Below are positions 33,665-39,355 of a stretch of 46,968 nucleotides of DNA, in pieces. The position numbers and the translations under genes were made by a program. The stretch comes from an uncultured Acidimicrobiales bacterium (GTDB lineage Bacteria > Actinomycetota > Acidimicrobiia > Acidimicrobiales > SZUA-35). The stretch's first letter is position 1, and the number at the start of each line of letters is the position of its first letter. The notes beneath the pieces were generated by a model. The model was not told where the DNA came from and made no database searches. It was given only the letters and a program-made list of their open reading frames with translations. The DNA is taken from NCBI GenBank assembly GCA_937981915.1, contig CALJMD010000214.1:1-46968 (forward strand), in the 5' to 3' direction.

Positions 33665-33749
33665 GCCCGGGTGGCGGAATGGCAGACGCAGAGGGCTTAA
33701 ACCCCTCGGGAGGTAACACTCCGTGCGGGTTCGAGTCCCGCCCCGGGCA
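33665..33749 (+). tRNA. tRNA-Leu(TAA)
   Basis: Acceptor GCCCGGG/CCCGGGC, D-loop GGAATGGCAGAC, anticodon arm GAGGG-CTTAAAC-CCCTC, long variable arm, T-arm GCGGG-TTCGAGT-CCCGC, discriminator A; CCA not fully encoded (CCG). Confidence 0.97.
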
Positions 33750-33851
33750 CCGAAATATCGCCGTGAAGTGCGCGCTTGCCACGACGCTGCCGATTGGGGG
33801 AGCCTGTCCCGTAGTCGCCGGAGTGGATCGAACCTGGCTATGGTCTGCGGC

Positions 33852-36145: not shown

Positions 36146-37207
36146 CTAATCGACCAAGCTGATCAGGCCATCACCTTGCGAGGTTCTTCCGACGATCGCT
36201 GCTTGATGGTCCGACTCGGTCAGCTGATCGATGCAGTGGGATGACTTGCCCGGGTCCACCCCGAAGAGCAGCCCCCCGGATGTTTGAGCGTCAGCGAGGA
36301 GCAGAACGTCTGATTCACTGACTGAGCCAACGTCGAGCTGTGGACGCACTGATTCGAGGTTCCTAGTCGAGCCCCCGGGCACATACCCGGCTTCAGCCAG
36401 CTCCGAAACTCCGGCCAAAACCGGCACCTTCGACACCTGTAGGGTCACGTCGACCGTTGATTCCTTGGCGGCGCGTGCGAGATGCCCAAGCAGGCCGAAC
36501 CCGGTCACGTCGGTTGCCCCGGTCGCTCCGGCATCAAGCGCCACTCGGGCCGCGATATCGTTCAGCTTTGTCATCGAGGCGACCGCTGATTCAGCCAGAG
36601 TTTCGAACTTCGGTTCAGCAGGCATTCCTCGCTTCATCGCGGTAGCCACGATCCCGATACCAAGTGGTTTGGTAAGAATGAGATCTTGCCCCGGTTTGAG
36701 TCCTGCGTTAGTGAGAAGTCGGTTCGGGTCGGCCTCGCCGACAACTGCGAGACCGAACTTCGGCTCGGGGTCATCAACCGTGTGGCCTCCGGCGATCACG
36801 AAGCCGGCCTTAGCGGCGATTTCGCCCGCTCCGGCTAGAACGTCGGCCAACAGTTCGAGGGGTAGCTCTTCGCGGTTCCAGCCGACCAGGTTGAGGGCGA
36901 CAAGGGGTCGTCCACCCATGGCGTAGACGTCGGAGACGGCGTTGGCCGCCGCGATGCGCCCCCACTGGGTAGCGTCGTCGACGATTGGCGTAATGAAGTC
37001 GGCGGTGAGCACGAGGGCTCGTCCGTCGTCGATCTGCCAGATGGCGGCATCGTCGCCTGTCGTGGCGTCAACCAGCAACCGGTCGTCATGGTTTGGGTTC
37101 AGGTCGCGCAGCACGTGCGCAAGCTCAGACGGGCTGAGCTTGCACGCTCAACCGGCGCCGTGGCTGAACTCGGTTAGCCGTTTGCGTGGTGCTGCCATGG
37201 AGGACAT
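36146..37207 (-). CDS. selD: Selenide, water dikinase (selenophosphate synthetase), selenocysteine-containing
   Basis: The frame extends past the track ORF: MSSMAAPRKRLTEFSHGAG-U(TGA 37148-37150)-ACKLSP; GDDAA, TADF.TP, ANAVSDVYAMGG, GGHT, TDVTGFGLLGH, DAQTSGGLL; SD AAGGAG 10 nt before ATG 37207 (alternative ATG 37198). Confidence 0.93.
37117..37145 (-). promoter_or_regulatory. Putative bacterial SECIS element
   Basis: GUGCAAGCUCAG-CCCGU-CUGAGCUUGCGC: 12-bp stem (one G-U) starting 3 nt after the UGA, with a G-containing loop at +15 to +19. Confidence 0.7.
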
Positions 37208-37357
37208 TTCCTAGCTGCTCCTTGCCGTTCTGACCTTCGTAGAAGACTTGCCTCGGTAGTTGACGATACCCAAGTACCTAACCAACTGAGTTGAAGAGGG
37301 TGTTACGCGAGGGTTCGGGCGACCGTAGTCGATAGCGATCAACTCTATGCTCTATGC

Positions 37358-39355
37358 GTGGTCCCTCGTGTGCTTGCCCAGCGCCTCGCCGCTGTTCCGT
37401 GGCTTGGCCCCCGGTTGCTCATTCGCCTGCATCGGCAGGGCTACGGTCTCGAGGAGCTGTCGTGGTCCCAGTTTGCTGACCGCGTGGTACAGCAGCGGCC
37501 GGATGCCGTCACCGTCGATGTCTTCGATACTTGCATAGTGCGCGACCTGGCCGGTGACGAGTCGATTGAACATGTCATCGAGTATCGGGTGGGTCGACAG
37601 CCCGACTCCCAGAGCGCCGACTCCCAGTGGATCGAAGAGGCCGCTGCTCTTGAGGTAGAAATGTGTCGGCCTGTCGCCGGTGCTCGGGCGGCGTTGGCCA
37701 AGATTCGGTCTGTGGTCGGCGGTGTCACGTTCATCTCTGACACCGAGCGCTCATCAGAACTCTTGCAACAGATTCTTACTGGCTTCGACTTGTTTGAAGA
37801 TGGGGATCGGATGGTGGCGTCGTGCGAAGAGGGGGCAACCAAGTCCGACGGCCCGCTCTATGACCTCATCTGGCAGAACCGGCCCGAAGTCGTTTGGCAT
37901 GCCGGGAACAACGACTGGTCCGACGGCGTGATGGCTGCAGCCAAGGGCTATCACCCGTTCATCATCTCCGATGGAAACCTCTCACGTTATGAAGAGGCGA
38001 TGAGCCATCGCGCCAGAAGCGTCGGGCCGGCGTTGGCCTCGGCGTCGCGAGCCGCCCGGCTCGAGTTGGAGGAGGAACGGCGGGTCGGCTTGGTGAGCGA
38101 CCGGGAGTACCAGCTGCAACTCATGGGGACACAGGTTGCCGGTCCAGCCATGGCGGCGTTCGCGTTGTGGATCGGCGAGCAATGCCGACAGCACGACATT
38201 GGTCATGTGGGGTATCTGGCTCGAGACGGCGAGTTGCCGATGTTGATGTCCCAAGCCATGAGCGAAGACCACCTGGGTCCAGTGTCGAGCTCGTACCTGC
38301 ACTGCAACCGACTTATTGTCACCTTGGCCTCGGCGTCGACTGTCGGCGTTGAACAATGGCTTCGGGACGGTACTGCTTCCGACGATGCCTTTCTCGAAGT
38401 GAACCGTCACATCGTGCCGCTCTCACTTCTGCTTTCTCGTATCGGATTCGATCTTCAGGACGTGGCGGATGTGTTGGGAGTGAGCCATCCGCTGGCCCGC
38501 CTGTCACCTGACAAGCCGCTTGGCTCCGAGAATGTTGCTCACTGGCATGAGCTTCTGTTTGATCAGACGGCCGCCAAGCTCATTCAGTCACGATCGGTTG
38601 GTAGGCGGGACCTTCTGTTGGATCACGTGCGCAGTCACGGCATCGGTCAGGAGCGGTTGGCCTTGGTCGACGTCGGCTGGCGGGGACGTCTTGCGTGGCT
38701 GTTGTCGTCGGTCCTCCGCGACTATCTGGGCCACGAGCCGCTACACCTCCACTTTGGAGGCGACAAGGTCTTCCCTGGACTCGAAGACGGTGTTCAGATC
38801 CGTCGGTTTGCCTTCGACGGTGTTTCGCCCCCGGACCCCTTGGACAGCCCGGTGTCCACCGTTGAGACCATTACTGCGTCCGGCAAGGCTCGAGTGGTCG
38901 ACTACTCACGTGGTCCAGGTGGCGAGGTTCAGCTTGTTTACGAGCAGGGACCGGCCGACCTCGGACTTGAGTTTCGAAGCGAAATGTGGCGGGGAGCGAC
39001 GAGAATGGCGGCATCAGTGCCATCTCGCAAAACTCTGTCGGAGTGGGGTGTCTCCAACGCTGCGTTGGACAGTGAGGTGCGAGCGACGCTGGGTGCCTGG
39101 TGGAACCAGCCGACGCGCCTTGAGGCCGAAGCTCTGGCATCACTCGGGTTTGAACACGACGAAGCAGGCACGACGGTGCGGCCAGTTGTTGCCCCGTACC
39201 GTCTCACCGATATTGTCGGTTCTCGCCAGCCCCGCCAATGGAGCCAGGGCTCTGAGGCAGTTTCGTCGCCTGCGAGCCGGGCTGGAATGCGGCTGGTGCG
39301 CTTAACGAGACGGCTTCGGGATCGAAAAGGCTCCGAGGCCGGTCGCTCTGCGTAG
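37358..39355 (+). CDS. HAD-superfamily hydrolase-like protein of the type found in surface-polysaccharide loci
   Basis: VDVFDT, FISDT, S.E.G..K, HAGNN, YLARDG, VDVGW.G. Confidence 0.7.
   Translation: MVPRVLAQRLAAVPWLGPRLLIRLHRQGYGLEELSWSQFADRVVQQRPDAVTVDVFDTCIVRDLAGDESIEHVIEYRVGRQPDSQSADSQWIEEAAALEVEMCRPVAGARAALAKIRSVVGGVTFISDTERSSELLQQILTGFDLFEDGDRMVASCEEGATKSDGPLYDLIWQNRPEVVWHAGNNDWSDGVMAAAKGYHPFIISDGNLSRYEEAMSHRARSVGPALASASRAARLELEEERRVGLVSDREYQLQLMGTQVAGPAMAAFALWIGEQCRQHDIGHVGYLARDGELPMLMSQAMSEDHLGPVSSSYLHCNRLIVTLASASTVGVEQWLRDGTASDDAFLEVNRHIVPLSLLLSRIGFDLQDVADVLGVSHPLARLSPDKPLGSENVAHWHELLFDQTAAKLIQSRSVGRRDLLLDHVRSHGIGQERLALVDVGWRGRLAWLLSSVLRDYLGHEPLHLHFGGDKVFPGLEDGVQIRRFAFDGVSPPDPLDSPVSTVETITASGKARVVDYSRGPGGEVQLVYEQGPADLGLEFRSEMWRGATRMAASVPSRKTLSEWGVSNAALDSEVRATLGAWWNQPTRLEAEALASLGFEHDEAGTTVRPVVAPYRLTDIVGSRQPRQWSQGSEAVSSPASRAGMRLVRLTRRLRDRKGSEAGRSA

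Follow-up and report, generated by a model that had tools for sequence, protein, structure and literature searches.

Features of the selD locus

The DNA analyzed here, referred to as the window, is the whole 46,968-nucleotide contig C214 of G000, an assembly of an uncultured Acidimicrobiales bacterium (4.07 Mb, 484 contigs, 88% complete). Its minus strand carries a gene for the selenophosphate synthetase SelD with a TGA codon in frame; the features of this locus and related genes of the assembly are listed in Table 1. Mechanical listing of the open reading frames (ORFs) shows only a short frame at this place, which lacks the SelD N-terminus, as the first-pass annotation of this DNA had pointed out. 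From 37207 onwards the minus strand has the codons ATG TCC TCC ATG GCA GCA CCA CGC AAA CGG CTA ACC GAG TTC AGC CAC GGC GCC GGT TGA GCG TGC AAG. With TGA read as selenocysteine (Sec, U), the translation starts MSSMAAPRKRLTEFSHGAG-U-ACK and comprises 353 residues up to a TAG at 36148-36146; U20 is the sole internal stop (table 11) in the 353 codons.

Table 1. Positions of the features discussed; those without a contig name refer to the window
Feature	Position	Strand	Evidence
selD coding sequence of 353 codons and a TAG stop, UGA at codon 20 predicted to encode Sec	36146..37207	-	translation, SelD models, 3u0o alignment
Predicted Sec codon UGA (residue 20)	37148..37150	-	pairs with the catalytic Cys17 in the alignment to E. 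coli SelD
Short ORF from stop-to-stop gene calling (GTG start, 322 aa), without the Sec/Lys loop	36146..37114	-	mechanical ORF list
Shine-Dalgarno-like AAGGAG, putative, 10 nt 5' of the ATG at 37207	37218..37223	-	direct reading
Hairpin H1, 12 bp (one of them G-U), loop CCCGU	37117..37145	-	minimum-free-energy fold; only the upper 7 bp (37140-37134/37128-37122) conserved and covarying
Hairpin H2, 6 bp (U-G, then GCGCA/UGCGC), loop CGUGC	37105..37121	-	covariation, bacterial SECIS criteria
665-aa ORF, divergent from selD	37358-39355	+	steady positive coding potential
selA	G000 C17:30596-31645	-	PF03841 323.3 bits, no internal stops
Further candidate selenoprotein genes	contigs C28, C78, C205, C313, C52, C325, C187, C212, C62 (two genes), C176		in-frame TGA at redox Cys position (UxxC or CxxU)
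Further candidate selenoprotein genes, TGA likewise at a redox Cys position, continued	contigs C398, C305, C79, C379, C65, C71, C12, C93, C4, C55, C121		in-frame TGA

The read-through protein scored 374.6 bits with the SelD model TIGR00476 (cut-off 125) and 344.4 bits with NF002098 (cut-off 299). It contains the AIR-synthase-related domains PF00586 AIRS (88.6 bits, residues 51-158) and PF02769 AIRS_C (60.5 bits, residues 171-348). A search against solved structures returned E. coli SelD (3u0o) with E = 2.7e-70 over residues 9-323. In this alignment U20, C22 and K23 correspond to Cys17, Cys19 and Lys20, and Cys17 and Lys20 are established catalytic residues of the E. coli enzyme. Both proteins share the motif SHGAG-x-x-CK as well as the AIR-synthase-like domains; however, E. 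coli SelD has Cys17 where the window SelD has Sec20, and the E. coli gene contains neither a UGA nor a selenocysteine insertion sequence (SECIS). The proposal of a SelD with an in-frame UGA at its active site is borne out by these scores and by the pairing of the TGA with Cys17. Judged from its sequence, the minus strand from 37207 to 36146 very probably encodes a complete SelD with a UGA-encoded Sec at the active site, inserted by SelB-dependent recoding.

Conservation of the TGA codon

Relatives were compared in a set of 40 genomes, of which 24 belong to the same genus and 16 to different families of the order. Within the genus, 23 of the 24 genomes gave a SelD match that contains a single TGA; in the remaining one (G012, 81% complete) no SelD match was found. 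Outside the genus, Sec-type SelD with TGA occurs in two of the 16 genomes, G035 and G028. An otherwise close orthologue in G033 has TGC at the site. Full-length Cys-type homologues were also found in G029, G034 and G039, these being more distant (44-46% identical), and partial SelD matches without TGA in G025 and G026.

Among public contigs, all 80 loci kept carry TGA at this site (79 recognized by motif and one, L126, by tblastn). The closest loci belong to metagenome-assembled genomes of Acidimicrobiales, an order of the Actinomycetota, and those further away carry the labels Microthrix, Egibacteraceae, Nitriliruptorales and Pseudonocardia. Across both locus sets, Ala or Val replaces the second Cys in three loci (L029, L032 and L126).

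The first-pass annotation had named TGC or TGT at 37148-37150 as the sign of a sequencing error or a pseudogene. Contigs of the runs X1, X2 and X3, which come from two studies, cover these positions and no letters other than TGA are listed there, with the caveat that the window itself may derive from one of them. Run X4 was not used as support: over 37136-37174 it provides only short pieces with two to three differing letters each, which probably stem from relatives.

Two further differences were seen close to the start of the gene. In contigs of X1, X2 and X4, the stretch of A residues ending in the start codon of selD (37207) is one base shorter; this variant retains the ATG, and the spacing to AAGGAG changes from 10 to 9 nt. 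Contigs of the same runs carry a synonymous change at 37190. Both differences are strain or assembly variation. Among the listed holders of the selD stretch, runs labelled marine metagenome contain 77-92% of its sampled words, and none of the listed holders is an RNA dataset.

Selenocysteine-decoding machinery

It had been stated before that the window contains no selA, selB, selC or selU. This is correct: its only tRNA is a tRNA-Leu(taa), and selA and selB are located on another contig of the assembly, C17. Directly downstream of selA, an ORF of 596 aa encodes SelB (TIGR00475 253.2 bits, cut-off 242.25) with GTP_EFTU, SelB beta-barrel and PF09107 SelB-wing_3 domains, the latter scoring 53.9 bits at residues 547-591. 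Furthermore, selA was found in all 24 of the same-genus genomes.

Three results weigh against a complete decoding system in this organism. The best match to the tRNA-Sec model RF01852 in G000 reached 46.1 bits, with a gathering score of 47, and was called tRNA-Ser(tga) by ARAGORN; ARAGORN detected 35 tRNAs on all 484 contigs, none of them for Sec; and BLAST searches of G000 with tRNA-Sec of the genus returned nothing longer than 23 nt. Since the assembly is incomplete and fragmented, this non-detection shows neither presence nor absence of the tRNA. Within the genus, tRNA-Sec was found above the gathering score in 21 of the 24 genomes (the assemblies without it being G006, G022 and G023, in addition to G000), and ARAGORN called tRNA-SeC(tca) in all three genus genomes tested. 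The tRNA-Sec of the genus has a length of 92 nt and differs hardly at all between G001, G007 and G020. Where selA and tRNA-Sec are on one contig in the genus they are separated by about 35-55 kb, and selA of G000 is located at the end of a contig of 31.9 kb. Presumably, selC is missing from G000 due to an assembly gap. Of the three components to be looked for according to the first-pass annotation, selA and selB are thus present in the assembly, but tRNA-Sec was not found there; its view that the organism decodes Sec is supported by selA and selB in the assembly together with tRNA-Sec in the genus.

Several leads to a tRNA-Sec in G000 were discarded. A search for a partial tRNA-Sec at the contig end upstream of selA gave only chance-level Rfam matches, and a synteny search for a matching contig end of G000 found no conserved neighbours of the tRNA-Sec genes of relatives. 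A prediction by ARAGORN on C171 (14671-14764, minus strand, 94 nt, tRNA-? with SeC or Val as alternatives) has a two-base anticodon and gave 0 Rfam matches at E ≤ 0.01; it is probably a false positive. The tRNA-Leu(taa) of the window (33665-33751, plus strand) owes its score of 39.4 bits with the tRNA-Sec model to a long variable arm and is not a tRNA-Sec. A TIGR03167 search of the 88%-complete assembly gave no match for the selenouridine synthase gene selU.

Within the order, G033, G029, G034 and G039 contain selA and tRNA-Sec although their SelD is of the Cys type without TGA, hence Sec decoding persists there without Sec-SelD. In the six genomes without SelD (G027, G030, G031, G032, G038 and G040), selA and tRNA-Sec matches are likewise absent.

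RNA structures downstream of the UGA codon

Two adjacent hairpins, H1 and H2, follow the UGA. H1 is part of the minimum-free-energy fold of a 61-nt stretch (-27.8 kcal/mol); shuffled sequences reached a mean of -18.96 kcal/mol (standard deviation 2.56, z = -3.45), and none of 200 shuffles folded as well. The 12-bp helix of H1 alone has an energy of -20.8 kcal/mol and its upper 7 bp one of -9.2 kcal/mol, and the helix of H2 has -7.7 kcal/mol. A scan of 36900-37400 against Rfam at E ≤ 10 returned three chance-level matches and no SECIS family.

Covariation was analyzed in a gapless alignment of 88 distinct sequences that covers the TGA with 9 nt of upstream and 57 nt of downstream flank. With numbering that starts at the U of UGA, the model comprised positions 11-17/23-29 for H1 and 30-35/41-46 for H2. 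With these 7 and 6 bp, 96.3% of the cells are paired as compared to 24.6-41.8% with slid partners; changes on both sides occur in seven of the 13 pairs, a value reached by five of 500 shuffles. Covariation is observed in both hairpins: the upper seven pairs of H1 are 94.8% paired, four of them with changes on both sides, and H2 is 98.1% paired with such changes in three of six pairs. Some of the compensatory changes alter the protein, e.g., CTC/GAG to TTC/GAA (Leu to Phe) and GCG/CGC to GCC/GGC (Arg to Gly). The lower five pairs of H1 are poorly kept; an A-U pair is retained in 3/88 and a G-C pair in 27/88 sequences, and the three others never covary. The H2 loop reads xGUxx in all 88 sequences. 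The G of the H1 loop is not conserved: the closest relative has CCCUU, the commonest loop window is CCCCG (31/88), and only three of 88 begin with G. The only Cys-type orthologue in the set (L038, with TGC) folds without H1 or H2. When the first 15 nt were forced to be single-stranded, mimicking a ribosome that decodes the UGA, the best fold was an extended H2 with -10.6 kcal/mol.

The hairpins were compared with the consensus of bacterial SECIS elements (bSECIS), for which a 2026 review (PMC13188914), citing the bSECISearch model, gives a loop of 3-9 nt closed by an upper stem of 4-16 bp, a G at loop position 1 or 2 that is mostly followed by G or U, 16-37 nt from the UGA to the apical loop, and a minimum free energy of ≤ -7.5 kcal/mol. 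H2 agrees with all four points, having a 5-nt loop on 6 bp, the loop sequence CGUGC with G and then U at positions 2-3, a distance of 32 nt and an energy of -7.7 kcal/mol, which is marginal; it differs from this model in that a separate conserved hairpin, H1, occupies the spacer between the UGA and H2. H1 agrees in stem and loop size and in energy and departs from the consensus with its loop CCCGU and its spacing of 14 nt.

On balance we consider H2 the likelier candidate for the SelB-binding site, i.e., the SECIS core, with confidence slightly better than even. Besides the bSECIS consensus, the SECIS of E. coli fdhF is a comparison system for H2. Several points argue against this assignment. 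The invariant GU of the H2 loop coincides with positions 1 and 2 of a Val codon which is kept in the Cys-type orthologue, so that a constraint on the protein could explain its invariance. The energy of H2 lies barely beyond the limit of -7.5 kcal/mol. In the window, the unconstrained fold favors the 12-bp H1, whose 3' arm overlaps H2. Finally, the aligned sequences are related, and the shuffle control therefore overstates the significance of the covariation.

Alternatively, the 12-bp H1 itself could be the SECIS bound by SelB, with H2 being incidental. H1 is the most stable local structure and is part of the minimum-free-energy fold, its upper 7 bp covary, and its loop GU at 21-22 nt from the U of UGA is near the 21-28 nt found for many of the other Sec gene candidates in the genome. 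However, neither of the first two positions of its loop is a G and its spacing is too short for the bSECIS consensus, the loop G varies among relatives, and the lower part of the helix is poorly retained. Furthermore, the 5' arm is separated from the UGA by 2 nt and, from the known footprint of the ribosome, would be expected to lie inside it at decoding. We thus regard this assignment as possible but rather unlikely. The first-pass annotation had proposed the 12-bp hairpin as SECIS and covariation of the stem as a check; the hairpin is indeed present in the predicted fold and its upper 7 bp covary, but conservation does not extend to the lower five pairs, and loop and spacing deviate from the consensus. 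A need for both H1 and H2 in recoding appears unlikely as well, and slightly more so.

In other candidate Sec genes of the genome, loops with a GU are located at a distance of 17-42 nt, measured from the U of the respective UGA. Many of the candidates in G000 show a downstream loop (C)CGUGA or GGUC(U) at 21-28 nt; four TlpA-like paralogues differ from these, having an AGUUC/G or GUU loop at 38-42 nt. These look like two SECIS spacing classes within one genome.

Proposed mechanism of recoding

The UGA at 37150-37148 would be recoded by SelB carrying Sec-tRNASec. SelB would be tethered to the mRNA structure just 3' of the UGA, which is the conserved pair of adjacent hairpins: H1 at 8-26 nt after the UGA and H2, with its GU-containing apical loop, at 27-43 nt. 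If H2 is the SelB-binding core, then the ribosome must melt the 5' arm of H1 as the UGA enters the A site; this melting may also release the bases that H2 needs. Sec would thereby be placed at the catalytic position in the N-terminal glycine-rich loop of SelD. The selenophosphate made by SelD would be passed to SelA, and SelD would in this way feed Sec synthesis for itself, making it presumably dependent on its own product, and for no fewer than 22 other genes that are selenoprotein candidates.

Further candidate selenoprotein genes

The expectation of the first-pass annotation that the genome hides other genes split by UGA was confirmed by 22 further candidates in G000, 23 together with SelD. 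The genome was scanned for TGAs that lie in frame, are flanked by coding potential on either side and have a Cys at most three residues away; 20 candidates were submitted to Pfam with TGA translated as U. Coding potential from codon usage alone was too weak (SelD ranked 875th and FdhA 1259th of 18141); a paralogue search, the Cys screen and family scans were therefore added. FdhA excepted, the Cys screen left out candidates without a nearby Cys, hence the number of selenoproteins is a minimum.

In 19 of the 20 candidates a Pfam domain spans the U or, for GRDB, stops three residues before it. These comprise two CMD/AhpD-like, six Redoxin/TlpA-like (one below cut-off), two AhpC-TSA, two Rv2466c-like, one DSBA, two GRDB/PrdB-like and two UGSC proteins, one Rdx protein (C121:19356, Pfam Rdx 61.6 bits) and FdhA. 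The FdhA fragment at the start of C28 was found by a molybdopterin-family search and reads NRT-U-HAPSV; with 322 bits it remains below the full-length cut-off of TIGR01591 because the contig end cuts the gene. The 20th candidate matches NF041238 'alkylhydroperoxidase-related (seleno)protein' with 270.6 bits (cut-off 175). Additionally, two DUF3179 genes reading TW-U-PLC were identified. All candidates fall into families that are already recorded as containing selenoproteins or are represented by curated '(seleno)protein' models.

The TGA of these families is kept in relatives. DUF3179 matches with one TGA were found in 22 of the 24 other genomes of the genus, and in five relatives one TGA is present in 22 of 51 Redoxin and 7 of 17 Rv2466c-like matches.

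Alternative readings of the UGA codon

The UGA might be a true stop, with the working enzyme being the short protein that starts at GTG 37114. The corresponding 322-aa ORF exists; however, residues matching Cys17 and Lys20 of E. coli SelD would be absent from it, the 31 codons 5' of the GTG are kept at the protein level in more than 100 loci with the TGA in frame, and AAGGAG precedes the ATG at 37207 by 10 nt. We consider this very improbable.

Equally improbable is that UGA is read as Trp, Gly or Cys by an altered code or by suppression without Sec machinery, although the genome contains many in-frame TGAs. Long open frames of the assembly end in TGA more often than in any other stop codon (990 of 2174 frames of ≥300 codons), so the genetic code is not reassigned; where an in-frame TGA has family support, it takes the place of a redox Cys (UxxC, CxxU) in a known selenoprotein family, and selA and selB are present and intact.

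An error of sequencing or assembly at the TGA, or a pseudogene, as a fragmented metagenome assembly and gene callers halting at TGA might suggest, has a negligible probability given the same TGA in 23 of 24 genomes of the genus, in all 80 public loci and in contigs of three runs and a frame that is otherwise intact and 60-81% identical to relatives.

The divergent neighbour of selD

The 665-aa ORF that diverges from selD gave no Pfam or NCBIfam matches. It adjoins selD in 20 of 109 related loci searched, with 42-78% identity, several of these being the same genome fetched twice. A protein atlas points to long clusters resembling HAD-family hydrolases (score 0.95), which is a lead only.

Relation to known systems and implications

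Among the selenoprotein families of prokaryotes, Sec-SelD is described as the second most widespread (PMC13188914, PMC1794560), and Sec-SelD and its self-dependence have long been published (PMC1794560). The gene of the window resembles other bacterial Sec-SelD genes in belonging to the TIGR00476 family, in having the Sec position in the N-terminal Se-binding loop at the place of E. coli Cys17, and in the in-frame mRNA structure after the UGA. It differs in its origin from an uncultured Acidimicrobiales genus and in having two adjacent hairpins instead of one long stem. The Sec-SelD reported here is a known phenomenon and amounts to an annotation correction; it changes no concept. The ORF at 36146-37114 should be extended to 37207 with Sec at codon 20, and at least 22 other genes of the assembly need re-annotation as well, because standard gene callers split or truncate UGA-containing genes.

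Within the class Acidimicrobiia, Actinomarina is reported in a 2026 preprint (bioRxiv 10.64898/2026.04.03.716425) to possess selA/B/C/D with SelD itself being a selenoprotein, no selenouridine synthase, and about five predicted selenoproteins per 1.1-Mb genome. Both organisms belong to this class and have a Sec-form SelD, and a selenouridine synthase was found in neither; in contrast to the about five selenoproteins of Actinomarina, the 4.1-Mb assembly studied here has 23 candidates and represents a different order-level lineage, the Acidimicrobiales.

PMC5029168 defines organisms with six or more selenoprotein genes as 'selenoprotein-rich' and names Deltaproteobacteria, Clostridia and Synergistetes as rich. 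The 23 candidates, nearly all of them thiol-redox proteins, amount to about four times this threshold in a lineage outside the groups named in that text. A literature search found no report of selenoprotein-rich Acidimicrobiales, and the supplementary per-genome tables of PMC5029168 may list such genomes; the size of the selenoproteome is only a mildly new point. Tentatively, the genus may represent an undescribed selenoprotein-rich actinobacterial lineage, the SelD of which may use a bipartite recoding signal, in which a conserved spacer hairpin precedes a canonical SelB-binding hairpin. The finding would place a full Sec-decoding system together with a large, redox-dominated selenoproteome in an uncultured genus of the Acidimicrobiales.

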